This document shows, piece after piece, positions 25,650 to 48,754 of a DNA stretch of 64,000 nt (position 1 is its first letter; each line of letters starts with the position of its first letter). Source of the stretch: a virus (Duplodnaviria; Caudoviricetes). Location of the stretch: the IMG/VR virus record IMGVR_UViG_3300021197_001468, positions 676-64,675 of that record; one strand, given 5' to 3'. The notes below the pieces were generated by a model, which did not search any database, was not told where the DNA came from, and was given only the letters and a program-made list of their open reading frames with translations. The position numbers were made by a program, and so were the translations under genes.

Positions 25650-26228
25650 TGAGACCTCCGCGGAGACTATAACACTGTCACGGTGGTATGGTGTTTTGAA
25701 AAATAGCTTCGGTCCGGAAAAGGGCTCTGCGGTAGGTACCATAGGCTTGCTGCTTCGGGGTGGCCCCCCCTCCCCCCAAGCCTTCGGCTTGCTTCGGCAC
25801 CACCCAGCGAAGCTGGGCTACGTGCGATCCATCTCTTGGACCAGAATCGGTTCGGTCGGCCGCCGCCGCTGCGGGCGGTCCGATTGCATGAGCCGGGCCC
25901 GGCGGATGCCGACCAGGGAAGCCGACCAGGACGACGGGCCGTCGCCCTGGTCAAGGGGGATCCCATCGGGGATCCTACAGGATCACATTTGAGAACGTCG
26001 ACCAGCACGGCGCTTTCGACAAGGGCTGAATCTTTCTTGCCGCATTGGGTTGCGGGTTCCGTCTCAGCGGGGCACATTGTTTGGGCCAGGGGGGACGACG
26101 CAGTCTCCCGGCGGCACCGGCTCCTTGACATACCCCAATACGATGGACAGACGCGGCAGAGACACCGCGTACCGAGGCCCAACGCCTCGTAGTGAGGCAG
26201 GGTCAAACCTGAGAGAAGAGAGAAGAGA

Positions 26229-26612: not shown

Positions 26613-26661
26613 ACAATCACCGGCGGCGCACCTCACGGGGTGCGCCGCCATCGGAGAAGAG

Positions 26662-26766
26662 ATGAACAGAAGAGACGAACTGTTCAGGGCACTCGCCCTG
26701 GTGTGGATGACGTGGACGGCCACATACATGATGTGGCACGTGATCATCGCGATCACGACGCCCTGA
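26662..26766 (+). CDS. small membrane peptide
   Basis: GGAGAAGAG leader; single hydrophobic helix. Confidence 0.5.
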   Translation: MNRRDELFRALALVWMTWTATYMMWHVIIAITTP

Positions 26767-26822
26767 CCAACCGGGGGCGGCTCTTCGGAGCCGCTCCCAC
26801 CCAACAGAGAGAGAGAGAAGAG

Positions 26823-27050
26823 ATGAGAAAACACCTGTTCAATCAATGGAAAATCCCGGCTGACGGCAGCCCCGCTGTCGAACAGTGGGTGGTGAGTATC
26901 GAGGAGATGGGAGTCTTCGAGCGCTTCGGCACCTACGAGGAGGCGCGGGACTTCTGGAAGACGCTCGACACGCAGCCGGTGGAGAAGTGCGTGGTCTGCC
27001 ACGTGGTCTTCACCGGAAACGGGTGCCGCTGCGTGCCCGGCTTTATCTGA
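26823..27050 (+). CDS. hypothetical protein with Cys motif
   Basis: purine-rich leader; CVVC..CRC. Confidence 0.6.
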   Translation: MRKHLFNQWKIPADGSPAVEQWVVSIEEMGVFERFGTYEEARDFWKTLDTQPVEKCVVCHVVFTGNGCRCVPGFI

Positions 27051-27103
27051 GACAACCAGGGCGGGGGCTTCGGCCCCCGCCCACAAACCAAGAGAGAAGA
27101 GAC

Positions 27104-27301
27104 ATGAAGCAGCGATACACATTCAAGTCACTCAACCTGCAGGTCCCCACCCAGGGAGAGGCCCTCGTGGGCCTCACCTTCCTCGACCCCGACGAGGGGT
27201 ACGAGGTCACGGTCAAGGCCGCGGCCTACTTCATCAACCCCCAGGGATGGGGGTGGGTTCTCGACACGAACGGGGGGTCGTTCACCGTCTACGCCGACTG
27301 A
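27104..27301 (+). CDS. hypothetical protein
   Basis: AAGAGAGAAGAGAC-ATG leader. Confidence 0.6.
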   Translation: MKQRYTFKSLNLQVPTQGEALVGLTFLDPDEGYEVTVKAAAYFINPQGWGWVLDTNGGSFTVYAD

Positions 27302-27367
27302 CAAGAGAGAGAGACAACCAGGGCGGGGAGCACTGACTCCCCGCCCGCATCCCAAGAGAGAAGAGAC

Positions 27368-27553
27368 ATGAGCAACAAGACGACAAGGCTGAAGATCGCG
27401 TACCGCATGGGGTACATGGCGAACGCCAATGGGCATCCCCGACTTGCCCCTGATGGAGACCCCCTCCTGTTCGCCGCGTGGTTGGACGGGTACGATGATG
27501 CGGAGATGGACCGCTGCCAGTACTTGGCAGGCGGCGTCGACGACCGAGACTGA
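27368..27553 (+). CDS. hypothetical protein (Rmf-like AY..GY / W..GY pattern)
   Basis: leader identical to 27104; AYRMGY..WLDGY. Confidence 0.6.
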   Translation: MSNKTTRLKIAYRMGYMANANGHPRLAPDGDPLLFAAWLDGYDDAEMDRCQYLAGGVDDRD

Positions 27554-27859
27554 GACAACCCGGGTAGGGGGCTTCGGTCCCCTGCCCCTTCGTCGTTCGA
27601 GTCTCGAGCCTCAAGCCGCAGGCTCTTGGTCACCGGTCAAACCCGGCGGCCCGCGACGTCCGGAGCAGTCCGCCACCGGTTGAACCCCGGTGCATGGTGT
27701 CCGGTAGCAGTCCGGGACCGGGCTCGGCCGGGTACGCGTCCGGCCCGGTAGCAGTCCCGATCGGTGTCCGGGGCCCGGACTCGTCACCCAGGAGGACCCC
27801 GAACGAGAGCGCCCCGACCAGCCGGAGCCGATCGGGGCGAGGGAGCGCGGGCGCTGGCG

Positions 27860-28180
27860 TCAGCCGGACTTGTAGTCTTCCCGATCAGCTTCCCACAGCA
27901 TCTCCATTAGAGGCGTCTCGTTCCGCGCCCGGCGCAACCACGCCCGGCCCTCGGGCGTCAGCGTGGTGTTCCAATGGCCCCCGTTGTTGTCGAACTGCTG
28001 GAAGTCCGCGAGTCTCACGGGCTCCTCGTTGGCGTGCATCTCGAAGCACTCCAGGGCCCACGCGAGCGGGCTGTCAGTCGCCGCGTCGTTGATCTCCGCC
28101 GCGATGAGTTCGCGGCGGTTCCAGGTCCTCCGTCCGCGCGCCTCGTGAGCGCGCTGGCGGGGGGTGTTGTACCGATTCAT
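27860..28180 (-). CDS. hypothetical protein
   Basis: AGGAG RBS, 106 aa. Confidence 0.6.
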   Translation of the reverse strand: MNRYNTPRQRAHEARGRRTWNRRELIAAEINDAATDSPLAWALECFEMHANEEPVRLADFQQFDNNGGHWNTTLTPEGRAWLRRARNETPLMEMLWEADREDYKSG

Positions 28181-28232
28181 GTCACTTCTCCTGTGGCCGG
28201 CGTCCGTTGCCGGTGCCCCAACATACCACGGT

Positions 28233-28322
28233 GGAATCCTTAGCTGGAATCCTTAGCTGGAATTCCAGCTTGAACTCGAACTCGAACTCCCGAACTCGAA
28301 CTCGAACTCGAACTCGAACTCG
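28233..28322. repeat. GGAATCCTTAGCT x2 followed by a GAACTC hexamer array (~8 copies)
   Basis: seen directly. Confidence 0.9.
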
Positions 28323-28551
28323 TCGCCCAGGAGGAGGACCCAGGCCGCCGCCGGTCCCGGTCCCACGCTCGCCGGTCCGGTGTCCGGTAGCAGTCCGGTC
28401 CGGTAGCAGTCCGGTGTCCGGTCCGGGCGTAGCAGTCCGGTCCCGAACGCAAGCGACCCCGTCCGGGTGGGACGGGGTCGCGGGGATCAGGATGCGAGGG
28501 CCACGATAGCCAGGAGGAGAGCGGCCAGGGCGACCCAACCCCGGGCCGCCT

Positions 28552-29994
28552 TCACGCCTCTGCGCGCGTGGCCATGGCCAGGGCAAATGCCCCAGCCGCG
28601 CGCTCCGCCCGGTCCCGCTGGATAGCGTCCAGGAGACCATGACTCGCAGCGCGGGACACGGCGTTGACCACGTCCGCGACACGATCCCCACCCTCGAACG
28701 CGTACCCCTTGAGGAGCATCTCGACCGACACATCCCGGGCCGCTTGCTTATCCAGGCTGGCGAGGATCTTGTGCGCGTCCGTCATGGCCTGGACGGGCGA
28801 CTCCATGTCCACCACGTCTGCCGCGGACGTGGAACGCAGGACGCCCCACCGGTCCAGGAAGTACCCCGCCGCCTGCTCTACGCCCTGCGCGGTCTGCAGG
28901 ACGTCCTGCCGGACACGCTCCAGGCCAGCGGCCCGTGCCGCTGCGGCGCTGCGCACCCGACTACCCCGGTGCCGACGGTTGACCCCGTCGGCGATCCAGT
29001 CGGCAACCGTGCAGTTAATGCAGATCACCCGCTGGAAGGAGAGGCCCCCGTGGTGCGCGGAGTTTCCGGTGTCGCCGGACCTCCCCTTGATCCCGACTTC
29101 GAACACATCGCCGACCCCCGCATCAAACGTCTGCGGGGCATGCCACGTGGCACTCCAGGTCGCGAGCGTGGTCGCCGGGTTGTAGTCCACGGACCCGCGC
29201 GCATCGGGGAGGCGATCGGCGTAGTCCTCGAAGATCGCGGTGTACTCCTCCAGGATGCTATCCACGGGCATGTCCAGATAGGACATGCTCATGGCGCGGT
29301 AGATCTGGGGTCGCCCGTCGATCGTGCGGGTGCCGACGTTGACCAGGCGGGCCTTCTCGTCGTACCCGAACCGCTCCAGATTCTGGATCTGACGGTTGAA
29401 CACGTCGGCGCGCACGTCGGGATCGAGGGCCTGGAGGAGGGCCCGCGACGACGGGAACGCCGGGCGCTTGGGATCGGCGGAGCTATTGAACCGGCTGATC
29501 AGGGAGTAGAACGCGCCGGGCTCGATAGGGAAGCCACCGGACGACGACTTCCCTTCGGTGTAGATGCGTCCGTCTTCAGTCATGCGGAGCCGGGCCGCAT
29601 CGACCGCGAAGGACTTACGATCTTCGCGCCGGATCGCCTTGATCACCGGCGCGAACGCCTCGCGGATGGGCGGAAGGTCCTCGTGGAGGGCTGCCTTCGT
29701 GCGGAAGGTATCCTTCCCGATCTGCAACATCTCGGTACCGGCGTCGAACCACGTGTCGGGGATCTTCGCGGCCCACCCATTCGACTCCAGGAACGCGACG
29801 TCCTCGGAGATGCGGGCCGCCCGGTCGGGGTCGACCGTGCCAGCCTTGACGGTAGCGGGGGGCTTCGGGGGCGGAGCGCTGGGGTACCGGTCGCCGGTCA
29901 TCTCCTCCAGCGTGCGTGTGTCGACGCCTGCGGCGAATGCCGCCGCGTAGTCGGGGTAGGTGTTGCCAGTGGCGGGATCAAGGTAGCGAGTCAT
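28552..29994 (-). CDS. DUF932-like protein
   Basis: RAMSMSY, VGDVF.VGI..SGDTG, RVICINC pattern. Confidence 0.6.
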   Translation of the reverse strand: MTRYLDPATGNTYPDYAAAFAAGVDTRTLEEMTGDRYPSAPPPKPPATVKAGTVDPDRAARISEDVAFLESNGWAAKIPDTWFDAGTEMLQIGKDTFRTKAALHEDLPPIREAFAPVIKAIRREDRKSFAVDAARLRMTEDGRIYTEGKSSSGGFPIEPGAFYSLISRFNSSADPKRPAFPSSRALLQALDPDVRADVFNRQIQNLERFGYDEKARLVNVGTRTIDGRPQIYRAMSMSYLDMPVDSILEEYTAIFEDYADRLPDARGSVDYNPATTLATWSATWHAPQTFDAGVGDVFEVGIKGRSGDTGNSAHHGGLSFQRVICINCTVADWIADGVNRRHRGSRVRSAAAARAAGLERVRQDVLQTAQGVEQAAGYFLDRWGVLRSTSAADVVDMESPVQAMTDAHKILASLDKQAARDVSVEMLLKGYAFEGGDRVADVVNAVSRAASHGLLDAIQRDRAERAAGAFALAMATRAEA

Positions 29995-30040
29995 TCTCTT
30001 CTCACGGTTGCGCCCGCGGGTGAACCCCGGGGGCCCGACT

Positions 30041-30069
30041 ACCCTACCAAGGCGGTAGGACGGTGTCCA
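30041..30069 (-). promoter_or_regulatory. sigma70-type promoter for the DUF932-like gene
   Basis: TGGACA-17-TAGGGT. Confidence 0.5.
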
Positions 30070-30337
30070 GCGTATCTGAGCAAAAAGTTAGAACCGCCCG
30101 CGGCGTAGCCGCGCCACGAGCTACCGGAACACGCCGGTCGACTCCGCCGGTAGCTCGTGTCCGGCGGGTGTCCGGTGGTAGCAGCCCCGGTAACCCCGTC
30201 CGGTGGTAGCAGTCCGGCGGCCTACGTCCGGCCGTAGCAGTCCGGTAGCAGCCCCGGTAACCGGCCCACCGGTTAGAGCGTCCGGGGGTAGCAGTCCGGT
30301 TAACCACGTCCGGAGCTAAGATTCTTACCCGGATCGG

Positions 30338-30366
30338 TTGACAGTCTGATACCGCTCCGGTATGGT
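30338..30366 (+). promoter_or_regulatory. sigma70-type promoter
   Basis: TTGACA-17-TATGGT. Confidence 0.75.
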
Positions 30367-30409
30367 GTGGATGCGCCGGGCGGATCCGGTGCAAAGGAGA
30401 AGAGAAGCA

Positions 30410-31045
30410 ATGGCAATGACACTCAAGGAAGCGAAGACGATCACCGGGCACAAGTCGGGGCTGGGTAAGCCGAGCAAAATGCCCGGATACAGCACGGCGA
30501 TCCCGGCGTCCGCGTGTCGGACCGGTGCGAAGCTTGCGAAGATCCCGGGTAGCGTGTGCGCTAACTGCTACGCTCTGAGAGGAAACTACCTGTACACGTC
30601 CGTCAAGGAGGGACTGCAGCGCCGCATGGAAGCGCTGGACAATCCCCGGTGGGTCGACGGTATGGTGCGTCTCGTGGCGCACTACACCGATCCTAACGAT
30701 CCGCATTTCCGGGTACACGATAGCGGAGATCTGCAGTCCCGATCCCATCTGGACAAATGGGTCGCGGTCGCGCGCCGCGTTCCGGAGGTGAAGATCTGGA
30801 TGCCGTCTCGCGAGATAAGAGACGTCAAGGCAGCGATGCGTGAGGTTAGCGAATGGCCTGCTAACCTCGTGATCCGGTTGAGCGCCCCGATGATCGGGCG
30901 CGCGCTCGACATCTCGGGCCCGACGTCAAGCGTCGACGCGGGCACGGGCCACCGTTGTCCCGCCCCGGCGCAGGGTAACGAATGCGGCGACTGCCGCGCA
31001 TGTTGGGACCCCGAGGTCGCCAACGTCGACTATCACAAGCACTGA
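30410..31045 (+). CDS. GP88-like (radical-SAM-related) protein
   Basis: SKMPG, C..CYA..G.Y, FRVHDSGD, NLVIRLS, CPA..C.DCRACW. Confidence 0.75.
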   Translation: MAMTLKEAKTITGHKSGLGKPSKMPGYSTAIPASACRTGAKLAKIPGSVCANCYALRGNYLYTSVKEGLQRRMEALDNPRWVDGMVRLVAHYTDPNDPHFRVHDSGDLQSRSHLDKWVAVARRVPEVKIWMPSREIRDVKAAMREVSEWPANLVIRLSAPMIGRALDISGPTSSVDAGTGHRCPAPAQGNECGDCRACWDPEVANVDYHKH

Positions 31046-31230
31046 TGGCCACCGTAGCCCGAGGCGGTGGACGGCTCAGGATCTTCTGGGCCGTCTGCCG
31101 CCGATGCCGTAGCCGGTGGGGCCCGTTCCGCACCCGAGCAGAGGCCGCACGGCAGCCCGAGTGCTGCAGCGTATGCCGTTGACCAAGGGCCCGGGGTACA
31201 CTCCCCGGGCCCGTAGCGCATGAGGTTCCC

Positions 31231-31566
31231 ATGATTGCCGTGGACGTCGACGTCCTGTCAGCGCTCGTCCGCTCCTACCTGGGCGGGCGTGTCGAGATCC
31301 CCGAGACCGTGATCGCAGACCTGGAGGACGCGCTCCCGGTCGCGCTCGGGAGGATTAGTCCGGCGGAGCTAAGCGATAGGCTGGCGCTGGGGCTGGCCAA
31401 GCGCCCCGGTCCGGCGGTTACCGGTGCGTCCGGTAGGTTCTCCGGTCCGGCGGACGTCGACTTCGCCGTCGATACCATCCGGGGGCTACGCCGCGGCGCG
31501 GTTAGTCCGGCTGAGTCTGTCGATCTCGACCGGGTTTTGTCGATTCTTCGTGCTGTCCGGGGTTGA
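31231..31566 (+). CDS. hypothetical protein
   Basis: GAGG RBS, 111 aa. Confidence 0.5.
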   Translation: MIAVDVDVLSALVRSYLGGRVEIPETVIADLEDALPVALGRISPAELSDRLALGLAKRPGPAVTGASGRFSGPADVDFAVDTIRGLRRGAVSPAESVDLDRVLSILRAVRG

Positions 31567-31591
31567 CACCCCGGTGCAGCCGCGATAACGT
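31563..31591 (+). promoter_or_regulatory. sigma70-type promoter for the candidate sRNA
   Basis: TTGACA(31563)-17-TAACGT(31586); no credible + strand CDS downstream. Confidence 0.6.
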
Positions 31592-31597
31592 ACAGGT

Positions 31598-31710
31598 GAC
31601 CCTCGGGTCTTGCTCTCTGTGTGTGCTTGGGACCCATCCGTCCGTCTCCTCTTCTCTCTTCTCGGAGGCAGGCGGATGGGTGCCCTCTGCAGGGCGACCT
31701 ACGGGAGCCC
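31598..31710 (+). ncRNA. candidate trans-acting antisense sRNA with two pyrimidine-rich loops
   Basis: hairpins 31605-31635 and 31633-31680; loops complementary to dispersed gene leaders. Confidence 0.6.
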
Positions 31711-32025
31711 TCAGTCCTCTGTAGAGCGCCCGAGCGCTACGATCAGGCCCTCCAGGGTCTCTGCCTGCTCCCCGTGGAGCTTCGACGCCTTGTGAAGTGC
31801 GTCCGCAGTCTTCTGGAGCTTCTTGATCGTGGTCTTGTGCTTCGGATCCGCCTCCAGGCGGGGCTCCTCGGCATCATGAGCGCTGCTCATGTCGCTGACG
31901 CACTCATCGTGCATGGACTTCTTCATCCGGTAGTACCCCGGTCCGCTAAAGTCCGGCTGATAGCCGTCCATAAGCTGCTTCTTGACCATGATGAAGGTAG
32001 GGATTCCGTCGTTACTGCCGTGCAT
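31711..32025 (-). CDS. hypothetical protein
   Basis: GGAG RBS; L.KAS.LH..QA pattern. Confidence 0.65.
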   Translation of the reverse strand: MHGSNDGIPTFIMVKKQLMDGYQPDFSGPGYYRMKKSMHDECVSDMSSAHDAEEPRLEADPKHKTTIKKLQKTADALHKASKLHGEQAETLEGLIVALGRSTED

Positions 32026-32027
32026 TC

Positions 32028-32594
32028 TTAGTCTCCAAGGGTCTGAGAGCCGCCTGCGGCCACGATTCGGGCCAGTCGGTTGTCGAAGTCTACATCGACT
32101 GAGACGGCTGCGAGCGTGCTGGAGGCCCCAGGAGCCTCTGGAGTGATGCCAGAGCGCTCCAGGAGCGTCTCAGCGGCCTTAATCCGCTCCTTCGGGGGCA
32201 CCGCGGGGTCGTTCATGAGCATCGAGAGCACCTGGAGCGCATCGTTGGCGGCCGATTGCAGCCCATGTCCGAGCGCTTCTCGCCTCCGCTCGACCCCTGC
32301 AGCGATAGCCTCACGAACCTTAGGCTCCTTGCTCAGGTCATACACCGCACCTGGGTGCAGCTTCAGCCTGCTCGCCGTCTCAGCCGGCGTGTACCCCGCA
32401 CCCAGCAACTGCACGCACATGGCCCGCACCTCGCCAGACGCCGCGAACTTAGCCCTGCTGCGCATAATGCTAAGCGTCTCCCGCTCAGCCGCAGGCGTCA
32501 CCTGGACAGTAGGCAGCGTCACGATCGACGTAGCCCCTGGGTGCTGCTCTGGATCGGTAGCCGTCGAATCTGGGTCTGTATGAGCATCGCTCAT
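32028..32594 (-). CDS. putative terminase small subunit (HTH)
   Basis: HTH (GYTPAETASRL) followed by ALQVL..LM..RIKAAETLLERSG, typical of TerS. Confidence 0.55.
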   Translation of the reverse strand: MSDAHTDPDSTATDPEQHPGATSIVTLPTVQVTPAAERETLSIMRSRAKFAASGEVRAMCVQLLGAGYTPAETASRLKLHPGAVYDLSKEPKVREAIAAGVERRREALGHGLQSAANDALQVLSMLMNDPAVPPKERIKAAETLLERSGITPEAPGASSTLAAVSVDVDFDNRLARIVAAGGSQTLGD

Positions 32595-32627
32595 GGTCTC
32601 ACCTCGTCGTATTAGTTCTGCTCACCC

Positions 32628-33206
32628 TGCTACACTTTCACCGCTCTCGACAACGACGTGCTACAGGGCCATCTCACCAATGCTACACAGCGCTACATGC
32701 ACAGAAGCAGTGAGAACAAGCTCCCACAGGGCATTCAACACCCCTCTGCTACACTTTTTAAAGATACTACCTTATATGATCTATAAGAGACTCACATAAC
32801 TCCAATAGCTCATGGGCCTGGGGCCTGGGGCCTGGAGCACAAGTAGAGCCATCGAGTAGAGCGATCAAGCAGAGCTATTTACTCTGGCCCCTTATGTGCT
32901 TCATAACTGACTGAAGCAGCCAAAAGTGTAGCAACCGTACGTCAAGTCCCGCGCTGCTCGGGCTTATGGCTGCTTCTGTATATGTAGCGCACTGTAGCTT
33001 AACCACAGCGGCATAGGCTGACTGTCCGCAACCAGGGGGCACACGCGTCCCAGGGCCATACCGCAGCGGTGGAATGTAGCAGAGGACACAGGGGCTATGA
33101 CAGTACGGTATAAAATGTCAACTGCGACAACGCCGTGCTCATGGGCCATCTCGACAACGCCTCAAAATACTTTGACCAACACGGTGGACAACCCCTGCTA
33201 CACTTT
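32628..33206. other. putative replication origin / iteron region
   Basis: (T/C)GCTACA repeats in opposing orientation around an AT-rich core. Confidence 0.55.
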
Positions 33207-33266
33207 GTATAAGTAATGGGCCAGTCGGGGTTGCACTTGAGCGCCCCGCGACCAGGAGAGAGTGAG

Positions 33267-33494
33267 ATGAAAAGAGCGACCGTACACCTCGGGGCGGTGA
33301 CCGTCACGGGGAAGGAGCAGGAGATCCTGACCTCCCTCTGGCACGCCGGGGCCCTGCCCAACACGGGGTGCCGGGCGTCGGTGCCGTCCCGTTACCGCTC
33401 GCGGCTGGAGGACGCCGGCCTCGTCGACCTCGAAGCACACGCCGGTAGGTTGACCTACCGCGGCGCGCTCGTCGTCATGGCGCTGCACAGATGA
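33267..33494 (+). CDS. hypothetical protein
   Basis: AGGAGAGAG leader. Confidence 0.55.
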   Translation: MKRATVHLGAVTVTGKEQEILTSLWHAGALPNTGCRASVPSRYRSRLEDAGLVDLEAHAGRLTYRGALVVMALHR

Positions 33495-33658
33495 AGTGCT
33501 TGGGCTGCGGTGGCTACCGAGTCGTGGTCTGCGAGGACTGCGGCGGAGATGGATGCCCCGCGTGCAAGAAGGGTGAGACCCCCTGCCCCGTCTGCCGGAA
33601 GGCAGCATTCACTGGAACCAAGCGGCGCGCCCGACGCGTCAAGGAGAAGAGAGCATGA
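33491..33658 (+). CDS. small zinc-finger protein (four CxxC, DnaJ-like)
   Basis: MKCLGCGG..CEDCGG..CPAC..CPVC; ATGA overlaps at both ends. Confidence 0.6.
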   Translation: MKCLGCGGYRVVVCEDCGGDGCPACKKGETPCPVCRKAAFTGTKRRARRVKEKRA

Positions 33659-33891
33659 GCATGAGCACGCACGAGACCCCGAGCGCCGAGCGCATCAAGG
33701 AGGTCATGGACCTCATCTCGGACAAGTCCATGTCGTCGTTCGGTACGGGCGACTGGACGCCCCTCACCCCCGAGGAGATCAGGGACTTCCTGTTCCTCGC
33801 CGAGCGCGCCCTGGTGTCGGACGGATTCAGTTGCACCGTGGTGGTGAGGGTGGGCGTCAAGCTCCGCCTCGCCCTCGCGGACACGCCGTGA
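33655..33891 (+). CDS. hypothetical protein
   Basis: GGAGAAGAGAG leader. Confidence 0.6.
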   Translation: MSMSTHETPSAERIKEVMDLISDKSMSSFGTGDWTPLTPEEIRDFLFLAERALVSDGFSCTVVVRVGVKLRLALADTP

Positions 33892-33975
33892 GCAAGAGCA
33901 CGGAGGGGTGGGTGACCTTGGGTCTGCTCGCCCTCTACGCCTGGATCTACCTCCTCGCCTAACAGAGAGACACAC

Positions 33976-34263
33976 ATGACCCGCGACCAAATGATCGAAG
34001 CCGCGCGCACTCACGCCATCGCTACCGCCGACGACGCACAGGACTTCACCGTCCGCGTCTTCCCCTGCGGGAATGGCGCATTGTGCGCCTTCACCCGACT
34101 CCGCGAGAGCGGGGCAGACATGTACGCTCAGATCGTCAACGACCTGGGTGAGTCGCTGGGCTGCTACAGCCTGACGAAGCCGAGGGTGTTCCGCGACCTG
34201 TTCGACCGGCCCACCGCTGGCACTGCCGCGCGCATCCGCCATCAGCAGGCCCGCATCGACTAA
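33976..34263 (+). CDS. hypothetical protein
   Basis: ACAGAGAG leader. Confidence 0.6.
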   Translation: MTRDQMIEAARTHAIATADDAQDFTVRVFPCGNGALCAFTRLRESGADMYAQIVNDLGESLGCYSLTKPRVFRDLFDRPTAGTAARIRHQQARID

Positions 34264-34350
34264 CGCCCCCAGTCTCAACCCGCCCCGTACCTCCCCAGAG
34301 GTCGGGGCTTCAGGGGTGCGGGGTGCACCCGCACAAGCACGGAGAAGAGA

Positions 34351-34596
34351 ATGACTGACGAAACGCGACGCCTGCTGCTCGATACGATCGAAGGACTGTA
34401 CCGATTCGCTACACCGCCGCACGCGGTCGGGACTCCGCCCCTGGGTGTGAAGTACCGGACGCAGAACCGACTGGTCTCGCTCGACCCGACACCCGAAGCG
34501 CTGACCAATGCCATCGAAGCCACTGCCGATCTGATGACCGTACTTGTCCAGGCCAAGCGCGAGGTCGCAACCGAAAGAGTCGCGGCCGACGGCTAA
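34351..34596 (+). CDS. hypothetical protein
   Basis: GGAGAAGAGA leader. Confidence 0.6.
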   Translation: MTDETRRLLLDTIEGLYRFATPPHAVGTPPLGVKYRTQNRLVSLDPTPEALTNAIEATADLMTVLVQAKREVATERVAADG

Positions 34597-34674
34597 CGCC
34601 GCCCAGGCGCTGCTCGCCCCCTACCGCTTCGGCGGAGGGGGCTTCAGGGGTAGACGCACACCCGGAGAGAGACC

Positions 34675-35085
34675 ATGGAGACCCGCAAGTTCCACACAGT
34701 GGACGAGGCCATCACCGACGCGGGCCACCCCCCGCTCTTCTGTACCCCGTGCGACGCGCACTGGGAGAACGAGGGGGAGTTCAACCCGGACTCCCTCATC
34801 ATCAAGCGGGACGCCCTCGAGGACGGGGGTGCCCTGTGGGTGTCCTTCCACGACGACGTGTGGTGGATCCTGAACCACCCGACCTGGACGGAGACGGACG
34901 CGACCCTCGCGCTGCCCGAGCAGCGCATCGAGTTCACGTTGCAGTTCGATGACGACCGGACCGTGGTCGACACCACGTACGTGGCCGTCCTGCTTGAGTT
35001 TAACACGAAGAGTGTGACCGTCCAGGACCGCACCGTCTACGTCTGTGCTGCGAAGTACGACGTTCGCCGCAAGGAGTCCCCATGA
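34675..35085 (+). CDS. hypothetical protein
   Basis: GGAGAGAG leader. Confidence 0.65.
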   Translation: METRKFHTVDEAITDAGHPPLFCTPCDAHWENEGEFNPDSLIIKRDALEDGGALWVSFHDDVWWILNHPTWTETDATLALPEQRIEFTLQFDDDRTVVDTTYVAVLLEFNTKSVTVQDRTVYVCAAKYDVRRKESP

Positions 35086-35405
35086 TCCGCCTGACCTGCC
35101 GAGCACCCCGCTGCCGTTGTGTGTCTCCCTGCGAGACGTACGAGCGTGATGGTCGAGACGACCAGTACTGCAGAGGTCCCGAGGACTTCTGCGACGGCTG
35201 CCCTGAGTGCACCGAGACGGTGGAGACCTCGAAGGTCGTCACCGCTCGCGCCCCCCGTACTGAGGCAGGACGTAAGCGTCGTGCCCGCAACGGCATCCGC
35301 CCCGGTGACCTCATCAGGGTCACCCGCGGCTTCGAGTACCAGACCGGAGGTCCCCGACTCGGGTACTTCCACAAAGAAACCCTCACGCAGAAGAGAGAAG
35401 CATGA
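35082..35405 (+). CDS. Cys-rich hypothetical protein
   Basis: AGGAG RBS, ATGA overlaps. Confidence 0.6.
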   Translation: MIRLTCRAPRCRCVSPCETYERDGRDDQYCRGPEDFCDGCPECTETVETSKVVTARAPRTEAGRKRRARNGIRPGDLIRVTRGFEYQTGGPRLGYFHKETLTQKREA

Positions 35406-36549: not shown

Positions 36550-38417
36550 TGTTCAACCAGCCGCACTTCGTCTACAGCATCCGCGGAAGCGGACAGGTGC
36601 TCACCGAGATCGAGAACCAGGTTCCTGGGTGTCTGCTCTACGGATACGCCGGGCGCAGGTTCCGCATCCGTACGGCGGAGGACGCCAGCCGGGCCAGCAC
36701 CTTCGAGGTGGTGGCCCCGCTCAACGCCGCGTTCCTGGTGGAGCACTACCTCATGTGGATGGGGTTGAAGTACCACGCCATCCCCAAGAAGGGGGCGGAG
36801 TCCGTCTTCTCCTGGGCGGAGGAGGACCGCGCCACCATGGTCGCCCTGGGGGCCAGTCAGGTCCGGGGTCTGGTCGAGGCAGGAGAGATCAAGGAGCACG
36901 TCACCGACATGCTCACGGACTACCAGAAGCTCGGGGTGGGCTGGGTGCTGACCCGGCCCTGGTCGCTCAACGTCTGGGCCTGCGGGTCCGGCAAGACGCT
37001 GGGTGCCATCGTGTCCAGCCTGCAGGTCCCCGGCCCTGTCCTGGTCGTCTGCCCCGCCAAGGCGAGGCACGTCTGGTGGTCCCAGGTCCAGGAGTACACC
37101 AACGTCGAGCCCTACCGCGTGAAGCCCCAGGGCGACATGCGCAAGAGTGACGAGACCCTGGACGAGTATCTCCGCCGCATGAAGGCAGAGGCCCGGCGAC
37201 CGTTCGTCATCATCGGGCTCGAGGCGCTCGCCGACTACCTCCCCGCAGCGCAGAAGGTAGACCCCGCGGTTCTTATCCTCGACGAGATCCACTACCACGG
37301 CAACAACCGTAGGTGGAAGGCGATCAACAACCCCGACGGCTCAGTGTCCTTCGAGACACGCCAGACCAAGAACGGCAACGAGGCCCGCGCGGTCTCGGTC
37401 ATGACCGTCACCAAGCTCCCCAATCTGGTCAAGCGCATCGGGCTCACGGCCACACCACTCGACGACGGCAGACCCCGTCGACTGTGGAGCCAGCTCGACC
37501 TGCTCGCCCCGGGCTCATTCAGCTACAGCTACAGAAGGTTCTCCCTCCGCTACTGCGGTGCCGTCATCAACCAGTATGGTGGGATGGACGACAAGGGCTC
37601 AAGCCACATGGACGAGCTCCGCGCACGGTGCTCCTTCATGACACACGAGGTCCCGTATTCGGAGAGCCACTCGGAGCTTCCCTCTACTCGGGTACAGGTT
37701 GTGTATCTCGACAAAGGCGACTTGTCAGGGGCAGAACGGTGGTCTGATGAAGAAACTTATGGTCAGGCAGTCAAGCGAATCACGAAGCTCTCGCGCACCG
37801 ACTTCACCCAGAAGGAGCGACTCGTCGAAGCCAGACTGGCGGACGCCTGTAGCCGCAAGCGACGCTACGTGGTGGACGAGGTCTGCCAGGGTGTCAGAGG
37901 CGGAGGCAAGGTCGTGGTCTTCGTCGCCCGTCGCCGCGAGTGTGAGAAGTGGACTGCGGCAGTCCGGAAGGCTCTGGGCACTGGAGACGAGCAGACTCCC
38001 GTGGATGTGTGGATGGCGCACGGCGGAGTCAGTGAGTCTGAGCGTGATCGCATCGCTGACTCCTTCCGTGAGCACGAAGGACCCTGCGTCCTGGTCGCGA
38101 CTGGGCAGTCCGTGGGTACGGGGGTCGACGGCATGCAGACGGCGGACCTCGCCATCTTTGCTATGCTGCCGTGGAAGCCCGGAGACTTCGTCCAGTGGAA
38201 GGGTCGGTTCGACCGCCTCGGGGGTAGCCCGACGCTGCTCAAGGTGGTGGTTGCCAAGGCCACGTACGACGAGAAGGTGGTCGAGATACTCGTCGATAAG
38301 TTCGGTCCCATCGAGCAGTTCCTCAAGGCGGACGAGCTGGATGGCCTGGGCGAGAAGCTCATGGGGATTGAGGATCGTGAGGCTGTGATCTCGGGCTTCC
38401 TGGCCAAGCTCGGTTGA
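36549..38417 (+). CDS. SNF2-like SF2 helicase
   Basis: YQ, GSGKT, LVVCP, ILDEIH, LTATP, GTGVDGMQ, Q..GRFDR. Confidence 0.85.
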   Translation: MFNQPHFVYSIRGSGQVLTEIENQVPGCLLYGYAGRRFRIRTAEDASRASTFEVVAPLNAAFLVEHYLMWMGLKYHAIPKKGAESVFSWAEEDRATMVALGASQVRGLVEAGEIKEHVTDMLTDYQKLGVGWVLTRPWSLNVWACGSGKTLGAIVSSLQVPGPVLVVCPAKARHVWWSQVQEYTNVEPYRVKPQGDMRKSDETLDEYLRRMKAEARRPFVIIGLEALADYLPAAQKVDPAVLILDEIHYHGNNRRWKAINNPDGSVSFETRQTKNGNEARAVSVMTVTKLPNLVKRIGLTATPLDDGRPRRLWSQLDLLAPGSFSYSYRRFSLRYCGAVINQYGGMDDKGSSHMDELRARCSFMTHEVPYSESHSELPSTRVQVVYLDKGDLSGAERWSDEETYGQAVKRITKLSRTDFTQKERLVEARLADACSRKRRYVVDEVCQGVRGGGKVVVFVARRRECEKWTAAVRKALGTGDEQTPVDVWMAHGGVSESERDRIADSFREHEGPCVLVATGQSVGTGVDGMQTADLAIFAMLPWKPGDFVQWKGRFDRLGGSPTLLKVVVAKATYDEKVVEILVDKFGPIEQFLKADELDGLGEKLMGIEDREAVISGFLAKLG

Positions 38418-38442
38418 CAGATTAGCTCCGCCTCGGTATGAT
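38414..38442 (+). promoter_or_regulatory. sigma70-type promoter
   Basis: TTGACA-17-TATGAT. Confidence 0.8.
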
Positions 38443-38464
38443 TACAAAGCACACAGAGAGAGAC

Positions 38465-41337: not shown

Positions 41338-41358
41338 CGGGCACACAGAGAGATCCTC

Positions 41359-48673: not shown

Positions 48674-48754
48674 AGTGCCTGTGCCTTAGTGCGCCGCTGT
48701 CCCCCGATGGCGGCGCACAGTGCTACAAACGAGAAGCCACACACAGAGAGACAC

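Follow-up and report, generated by a model that had tools for sequence, protein, structure and literature searches.

Several regulators are known to act on phage messages at the sites where ribosomes bind. The c4 RNAs of phages P1 and P7 and the CI RNA of P4 pair through exposed segments with phage ribosome-binding regions and keep the messages untranslated, and RegA of T4, a protein, shuts off the translation of early messages by occupying their ribosome-binding sites. Two further phage RNAs, sar and OOP, are described in part of PMC12197685 as blocking the translation of single targets. Small RNAs (sRNAs) addressing many messages at once include GcvB, the G/U-rich region of which silences CA-rich or ACA translational enhancers beside the Shine-Dalgarno (SD) sequence (in passages of PMC3879156), and the 6C sRNA of high-GC Gram-positives, which binds multiple mRNAs via C-rich hairpin loops without a chaperone (in passages of PMC6486639). 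We found no phage sRNA addressing a family of shared leaders described in the open-access literature or in section 2 of PMC12197685. Here we analyse a 64,000-nucleotide stretch of DNA (bases 676-64675 of the 64,675-bp IMG/VR virus record IMGVR_UViG_3300021197_001468; hereafter "the window"), in which an intergenic element at 31563-31713 is a well-supported candidate for an sRNA gene, with two exposed segments complementary to the leaders of 13 phage genes.

The prediction of an RNA gene on the + strand is well supported, as (i) its promoter is conserved, (ii) a 5' hairpin stands at the predicted +1, and (iii) the large hairpin that follows shows covariation. The locus lies between two convergent genes, 31231-31566 (+) and 31711-32025 (-), in a codon-score gene call, and about 115 nt of non-coding DNA follow the promoter. 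The promoter, which the original prediction had placed at 31563-31591 pointing into this gap, was located there, and its -35 box shares bases with the stop codon of the + gene. Sequences of the form TTGACA-N16-18-TAnnnT occur three times in the window, all on the + strand (30338, 31563 and 38414), against 0.17 expected, and none of 100 shuffles reached three. Metagenomes at JGI yielded three short contigs, two of which (L064 and L065, 1.2-1.3 kb) cover the locus, and the third (L066) is without the region; the comparisons below rest on three sequences including the window. No further homologue of the RNA locus was found in IMG/VR and GTDB genomes, pattern scans included. The -35 box, the 17-nt spacing and the TAnnnT form of the -10 box are common to all three homologues (TAGAAT in L065 and TAGAGT in L064), and the promoter has been kept although the flanking protein of the relatives is only 64-72% identical. 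On the prediction from sequence, the RNA has a promoter of its own.

When both strands were folded, as had been proposed together with the original prediction, the + strand was the stabler in the window and in both relatives. The minimum free energy (MFE) from 31592 was -60.3 kcal/mol (z -2.95) on the + strand and -53.6 kcal/mol (z -2.57) on the - strand of the window, and the values of the relatives were -61.4/-48.9 and -54.9/-41.6 kcal/mol. An RNAalifold consensus of the three sequences holds 33 pairs, eight of them with compensatory changes. On this structure the three homologues together have 10 G-U pairs against one A-C, from which we conclude that the structure is selected on one strand only, the + strand. 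The strand preference that had been drawn from four G-U pairs thus stands on both the pair counts and the fold energies, and the count itself falls to three in the window sequence.

The 5'-terminal hairpin begins 6 nt past the -10 box in all three homologues, reading GACC-CUUG-GGUC in L065 and, with covariation, GACAG-UACGU-CUGUC in L064. The arms of the large hairpin differ in sequence among L064, L065 and the window yet still pair, and the 3' hairpin is kept; the latter is adjacent to the stop codon of the convergent gene 31711-32025 (-) or overlaps it. Both the 17-bp stem with one mismatch and the small closing hairpin had been recognised correctly in the original prediction, the former being the core of the MFE fold. 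A further hairpin proposed there, GGGUCUU/GGGACCC around a GU-rich tract, neither appears in the MFE fold nor is conserved; the GU-rich tract is a linker, and the "two loops" first proposed are to be read as one linker and one loop (hereafter loop 2).

These exposed parts are better kept than the stems. The linker core GCUCU(CU)GUGUG(UG)C is common to 3/3 homologues, which differ in it by 2-nt repeat units only, and loop 2 of L065, CUCUUAUCUCUUCUC, is one change away from that of the window. Substitutions between the window and L065 fall in 14 of 40 stem columns and in two of 16 loop 2 columns; in this comparison the exposed segments evolve slower than the stems. A 2-nt indel and a loop replacement distinguish the homologues, a non-coding pattern. 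In ensemble folds, loop 2 is unpaired with a probability of ~0.99. We also observed an alternative fold, in which CUCUG of the linker (31612-31620) can pair with CAG(A/G)G 3' of the large hairpin (31684-31696); this pairing, which would mask part of the linker, is possible in 3/3 homologues, which with three sequences is indistinguishable from chance.

The two exposed segments find their complements in front of start codons. We defined a target leader as a stretch of 9 nt or more that is perfectly complementary to the linker or loop 2 and lies within 10 nt upstream of a start codon. By this definition, 13 genes carry perfect complements of 9-15 nt ending 0-9 nt before the ATG, ten to loop 2 and three to the linker (Table 1), where about 15 had been proposed at the outset. 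The longest loop 2 complement, GAGAAGAGAGAAGAG, was found as described there, matched 15/15 at 26213-26227, and the matches before the other nine ATGs, from 26662 to 35402, are perfect over 9-12 nt. Of the sites ascribed to the linker, those before 38465, 41359 and 48755 are perfect and those before 33976 and 46483 proved to be interrupted, as is that before 34675. The single-stranded DNA-binding protein (SSB) label given to the 200-aa product of ATG 41359 was not borne out by any Pfam match. All these leaders are of low complexity, CA-rich and then GA-rich up to the ATG, usually behind a GC-rich hairpin. We agree with the earlier observation that the structural genes carry plain GGAG or GAGG; they are without a GA or CA-GA tract.

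The tie between the two exposed segments and the two classes of start-codon leaders is statistically solid. With up to three mismatches, GAGAAGAGAGAAGAG has 10 matches in the window against 2.8 expected and AAGCACACACAGAGAG has five against 0.7, and in neither case did any of 100 shuffles reach the observed number. All copies of the two motifs except those of the RNA locus itself directly precede a start codon. With the stems of the same RNA as the internal control, complementary sites of at least 9 nt lie at listed starts in 13 of 22 cases for the linker and the loop and in 1 of 67 for the stems or the rest (Fisher p = 4e-9). Seven of the 68 starts listed for this test had been placed by the coordinates of the original prediction, and it was therefore redone with 65 starts chosen by codon score alone, in a sliding-window control of 25,554 windows with a tolerant leader span of -22 to +40. 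At k = 11, the RNA locus matches five leaders against a mean of 0.18 per window; 14 of the 25,554 windows reach five, and the RNA locus is the only locus listed at this value. Its only equals at k = 9 and k = 10 are antisense strands of the leaders, and it is the top non-leader locus in this genome-wide control, which supersedes an earlier null with 391 candidate starts that was too noisy (mean 3.9 hits). The enrichment of complementarity at start codons over controls, which the original prediction had put up for comparison, is thus observed, as are the sequence features, their conservation and the strand preference.

Duplex energies set the two segments apart. Loop 2 forms duplexes of -19 kcal/mol or lower at 14 sites, six of which are at starts under the strict rule and two more of which overlap an ATG, and it is by this measure more selective than the linker. 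RNAcofold-type energies, which cannot model loop-loop contacts, undervalue loop 2. Energies corrected for accessibility are indicative only, as the segments included stem bases; in this run the 1% quantiles of the controls (400 interior windows) were -4.2 and -0.9 kcal/mol, and the best leaders reached -17.6 (26229), -16.6 (38465), -14.9 (34675), -14.2 (48755), -11.2 (35402), -10.3 (27368) and -7.0 kcal/mol (41359).

We give even chances to the reading that the locus is the gene for a trans-acting translational repressor RNA. The product would be a non-coding sRNA, ~90-120 nt long, whose transcription from the + strand would depend on the host's main sigma factor. A hairpin at the 5' end is the usual protection of the start of an RNA, and the 5' hairpin may serve the same purpose here, with the third hairpin lying near the end of the RNA. 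Three replication-type genes (38465, 41359 and 48755) would be reached through the linker, for which duplexes of 11-16 bp and about -26 to -27 kcal/mol with their (CA)n(GA)n leaders were computed, and the 14-nt pyrimidine loop would pair with the GA-rich leaders, comprising SD sequence and spacer, of ten early or accessory genes (duplexes of 9-15 bp, down to -27.5 kcal/mol for 26229). Such duplexes cover the SD sequence and the spacer up to the start codon, so that a block of initiation, at the binding of the 30S subunit, is to be expected; the decay of the mRNAs would probably be sped up too, for the whole set of messages at once. Late and structural genes with plain GGAG would escape the RNA. 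As it accumulates, the RNA could shut down the early and replication functions or, alternatively, silence them in a carrier state. Activation is rated below repression because the leaders are purine or CA tracts outside the upstream hairpins, leaving no sequestered ribosome-binding site to open. We infer the production of the RNA, its 3' end, the pairing in vivo, repression rather than activation and the timing in infection from the features described above. If the reading is true, a single gene of 100 nt would govern no fewer than 13 phage genes by means of two short address tags, as an RNA counterpart of RegA-type repressors of T4 and a phage-internal counterpart of multi-target sRNAs like GcvB. 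Its parts are small and modular (promoter, seed and a tag of 10-15 nt) and could serve as orthogonal translational switches.

A number of results weigh against a trans-acting repressor. In ensemble folds part of the linker is taken up in pairs (unpaired probabilities of ~0.1-0.8), and by energy alone only three of its 10 best sites are at starts, with many equal partners inside genes; its specificity would need more than thermodynamics. The complementarity of loop 2 is of low information, since any SD region rich in purines can pair with a pyrimidine loop. The hairpins are not followed by a U-run on either strand, and a terminator scan of 31592-31720 lists none; without a canonical terminator the length of the RNA is a guess, and the transcript may continue into the convergent genes. 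Contigs of RNA-type libraries (three runs) cover the locus at low depth, one stopping at 31612 and a chimeric one ending at 31658, and neither strand nor transcription is determinable from such cover, which between 28 and 36 kb is sparse. L064 has another, shorter apical part and has lost the CU loop, so that the part of the regulon addressed by loop 2 is not constant across the family. Of the original claim that one sRNA commands a genome-wide regulon through two leader tags, the RNA gene is supported by comparison and the link to the leaders by statistics, and the half that depends on the CU loop is weakened. A covariance model built from the three homologues recovered, in 47 sources (630 kb), its own sequences and one weak reverse-strand match on the palindromic hairpin, and it had no match in five near-complete genomes sharing the 331-aa protein encoded from ATG 38465 (~60% identity). 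Likewise, the promoter with a CA-GA leader is absent upstream of homologues of this protein (~55-62% identity) at all of the loci inspected, 48 of the 53 that hold such homologues.

Four other explanations were weighed. The element could be a transcript-end structure, i.e., a bidirectional terminator or 3' stabiliser of the convergent operons 30410-31566 (+) and 32594-31711 (-), with its leader-like parts being leftovers of an inverted duplication without function in trans. Its position exactly between two convergent genes, the very stable 17-bp hairpin and the fact that L064 swapped the loop yet kept the hairpin all fit this explanation. We nevertheless consider it unlikely, as the missing U-runs and the empty terminator scan speak against a terminator too, such a structure would have no need of a conserved promoter or of a hairpin at +1, the stems have changed more than loop 2 and the linker (unexpected for a terminator loop), the 10 to 1 asymmetry of G-U pairs points to one-strand selection, and the unpaired parts mirror two different leader classes. 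To the possibility that the transcript reads through into 31711-32025 and 32028-32594 as a cis-antisense RNA, acting by transcriptional interference or duplex formation with the structured 5' part as a stabiliser, we assign an equally low probability. It would account for the absence of a terminator 3' of the hairpins and for a promoter that faces the 3' end of the minus operon, in which the 188-aa product of 32028-32594 has a weak HTH_23 match (E 0.009, below the Pfam cut-off), and contigs from RNA libraries lie over 31857-32194 in three runs, a cover that is unrankable and carries no strand information. It leaves unexplained both the mirroring of the leaders of 13 distant genes and the conservation of the exposed segments above the stems; read-through could also coexist with an action in trans.

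Still less probable is a role of the minus strand or of the double-stranded DNA, with the motifs serving as decoys in the 3' untranslated region (UTR) of the minus operon for a leader-binding factor or as DNA sites of a regulator in the manner of stoperators, which are reportedly DNA regulator sites of Cluster A mycobacteriophages. Outside the RNA locus, every copy of either motif stands before a start codon, and the CA-GA motif at 38447-38460 occupies +1 to +15 of a promoter, a frequent operator position, as a DNA-level role would have it. Against it, these other copies stand 0-9 nt from an ATG, which argues for a role at the level of RNA or translation, it is on the + strand that the structure is selected and the promoter conserved, and no candidate binding protein was found. 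Very unlikely, finally, is the refutation that the original prediction had set for itself, namely that the GA tract does no more than serve a real gene of the minus strand, 31275-31637 (120 aa), as its ribosome-binding region. An ATG at 31637 does follow GAGGAG by 7-8 nt, the frame is open for 120 codons, and long open antisense frames exist in all three homologues. Against this, its codon score is under the listing threshold compared with 15.6 for the overlapping + ORF, its synonymous to nonsynonymous ratio of 27:50 resembles that of a shadow frame (the + frame is best, 35:45), its ATG and SD sequence lie inside the 17-bp stem, the ATG is missing in L065 and L064 with a 2-nt indel after it in L065, and the CA-GA motif would fall inside the ORF rather than before a start.

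Returning to the repressor RNA, the phage-encoded RNAs c4, CI and sar, the last of phage P22, resemble the present element in being small and in directing exposed segments against ribosome-binding regions of phage messages, whereas their targets are one or a few sites in an adjacent or overlapping operon and here 13 dispersed genes of two leader classes are addressed. No Rfam family reached its gathering score in the window, and no C4 match was obtained in 31400-31900 at any threshold used, up to an E of 10. RegA likewise shuts off a set of early phage messages at their ribosome-binding sites, and differs in being a protein where the effector proposed here is an RNA. The 6C sRNA shares the binding of multiple mRNAs through pyrimidine hairpin loops, and TAnnnT promoters and hairpins without U-tails are usual in its high-GC Gram-positive phylum; there is no Rfam 6C match in the window, and loop 2 is CU-rich rather than C-rich. 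U-tailed terminators are usual for Hfq-dependent sRNAs. GcvB provides a functional likeness, with one RNA acting on many targets by means of a G/U-rich single-stranded seed on CA-rich sequence at or upstream of the SD sequence (passages of PMC3879156). In the phage, ACA triplets occur within the (CA)n(GA)n leaders, and the linker, of the form (CU)n(GU)m, can pair as (CU)3(GU)4 with the (CA)3-4(GA)3-4 leaders of 38465, 41359 and 48755. This is a functional analogy only, as the element has no sequence or Rfam relation to GcvB, is encoded by a phage with the phage's own genes as targets, is without a U-tailed terminator and has a second, separate seed in a hairpin loop. What is predicted here is a variation on known antisense and multi-target sRNA regulation, with a well-supported RNA gene and a link to 13 starts that is statistically solid and makes biological sense.

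A similar layout exists in mycobacteriophages of Cluster K. In these phages, start-associated sequences (SAS), GGGATAGGAGCCC, precede 11-19 non-structural genes by 3-9 nt in one orientation, K1 phages have a single copy in the opposite orientation away from any start, and the function was left open as "RNA or protein" (passages of PMC3203893); the role of SAS was still "ill-defined" in 2024 (PMC11373665). We found 16 forward SAS and one reverse SAS in Anaya, the latter in a 385-bp gap near the right end, where a hairpin with z -3.99 carries it as its 10-nt apical loop, CCUCCUAUCC (34850-34900 of L120; 59849-59899 of the record). The anti-SAS region is kept in 135 Cluster K records, and an alignment of nine Cluster K phages supports 37 pairs in the hairpins, of which eight have changed in a compensatory way, with G-U pairs at several positions of the + strand. 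The anti-SAS loop is kept in six of the nine; it has diverged in Ekdilam, although the SAS copies of this phage keep the consensus, and Keshu and SirPhilip are without it. In Adephagia the hairpin lies in the gap before gene 93, and late transcription appears to begin between genes 92 and 93 (PMC11373665). Some Cluster K records annotate a hypothetical ORF over the anti-SAS element.

The likeness to the window consists in a motif beyond the SD core near non-structural starts and in a reversed copy in the loop of a conserved, covarying hairpin; the motif GGGATAGGAGCCC is unlike those of the window, and the phages are not related. SAS occur in K2/K3-type phages in the absence of a reversed copy (passages of PMC3203893), and this, together with Ekdilam, Keshu and SirPhilip being without a perfect anti-SAS loop, means that the RNA is not needed for SAS function as such. 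Cluster K shows the same layout in unrelated, experimentally tractable phages and proves nothing about the window. We put forward only tentatively, and with some doubt, the general idea that phages with shared start-codon leader tags encode an anti-leader RNA, carrying the complement in an exposed loop or linker, as an undescribed means of timing or silencing a class of genes. The present RNA would then be an example with two seeds, one for accessory early genes and one for replication genes. If true, this idea would explain the SAS of Cluster K, a question open since 2011 (as posed in passages of PMC3203893).

Table 1. Positions in the window of the parts of the predicted RNA gene and of the 13 leaders complementary to it.
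Feature	Position	Strand	Remarks
Promoter TTGACA-N17-TAACGT	31563..31591	+	kept in L065 and L064
5'-terminal hairpin GACC-CUCG-GGUC	31598..31609	+	6 nt past the -10 box, at the predicted +1; covariation
Linker ("seed 1") UUGCUCUCUGUGUGUGCUUGGG	31610..31631	+	(CU)n(GU)m, complementary to (CA)m(GA)n leaders
Large hairpin, 17-bp stem, one mismatch	31629..31685	+	core of MFE fold; compensatory changes
Loop 2 UCUUCUCUCUUCUC, 14 nt	31650..31663	+	complementary to GA-rich leaders
3' hairpin GGGC-GA-CC-UAC-GG-GA-GCCC	31691..31711	+	pairs kept, two with compensatory change
GA leader of ATG 26229 (127 aa)	26211..26228	+	loop 2, 15/15; duplex -27.5 kcal/mol
GA leader of ATG 26662 (34-codon ORF ending 26766)	26654..26662	+	loop 2, 9 nt
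GA leader of ATG 26823 (75 aa)	26812..26823	+	loop 2, 11 nt
GA leader of ATG 27104 (65 aa)	27090..27102	+	loop 2, 12 nt
GA leader of ATG 27368 (61 aa)	27354..27366	+	loop 2, 12 nt
GA leader of gene starting 29994 (480 aa)	29995..30003	-	loop 2, 9 nt
GA leader of ATG 30410 (GP88-family protein)	30397..30405	+	loop 2, 9 nt; 3' of promoter 30338-30366
GA leader of ATG 33655 (78 aa)	33644..33653	+	loop 2, 10 nt
GA leader of ATG 34351 (81 aa)	34342..34350	+	loop 2, 9 nt
GA leader of ATG 35402 (255 aa, DUF2786/DUF7168)	35389..35400	+	loop 2, 12 nt
CA-GA leader of ATG 38465 (331 aa)	38447..38460	+	linker, 15/16; duplex -27.4 kcal/mol
CA-GA leader of ATG 41359 (200 aa)	41342..41352	+	linker, 11 nt
CA-GA leader of ATG 48755 (690 aa, DUF927 primase/helicase-like)	48738..48750	+	linker, 13 nt

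The window has a G+C content of 63% and encodes a portal protein of the P22/SU10 type, a family A DNA polymerase, the DUF927 primase/helicase-like protein, an SNF2-type helicase and a Dam methylase. It has no DNA match, near or distant, in the cultured-phage collection, where protein matches are remote only (helicase, at most 31%; portal, 22% to a Microbacterium phage), and near-identical DNA is present in seawater and marine viral metagenomes of several studies. Neither an integrase nor a repressor family was found among 36 different window proteins scanned against Pfam, and there is no evidence from these 36, for want of an integrase, that the phage is temperate. That the host is actinobacterial is a guess from the TAnnnT promoters, the hairpins without U-tails and the GP88-family protein.

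Both genes flanking the RNA locus have homologues in related contigs. The + gene 31231-31566 encodes 111 aa (codon score 15.6), the - gene 31711-32025 encodes 104 aa and has eight relatives of 59-72% identity in the protein collection, and the next minus gene, 32028-32594, encodes the 188-aa protein mentioned above. The contigs over the junction of the two minus genes (31857-32194) come from three RNA-type libraries of two studies, the runs having been chosen with the region as the query. The GP88-like neighbour has 63 relatives in IMG/VR, the closest of which (L001, 67%) shares only that gene with the window. Its gene is preceded by the promoter 30338-30366, which is followed by a small hairpin and then by the GA leader. 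Similarly, the promoter 38414-38442 precedes the 331-aa gene, the 5' UTR of which is only ~15 nt long and consists of the CA-GA motif; the leader 38447-38460 is nearly the whole of it.

Polar GTAGCAGTCC repeats occur at 27.7, 28.4 and 30.2 kb, those at 30.2 kb being a cluster immediately before the promoter at 30338, and the 111-aa gene upstream of the RNA locus is rich in (G/T)AGTCCGG-like repeats. The spacers of the RNA promoter in L065 (GGTAGCAGTCCGG) and L064 (GGTAGTGTCCGGG) resemble the polar repeats. A DNA-binding regulator may act at these repeats and control the RNA promoter as well. A low-complexity stretch at 28272-28322 matches many contigs of other organisms in all four sequencing runs compared, with length variants of 2 nt at 28287-28290, and is probably a simple repeat rather than phage-specific sequence. 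Small early genes at 26760-27370 and 34260-34675 are preceded by a recurring unit composed of a stop codon, a GC-rich hairpin, a C/A-rich spacer, a GA tract and the ATG; the hairpins of these units often have a UUCG-type loop, and their sequences vary from unit to unit.

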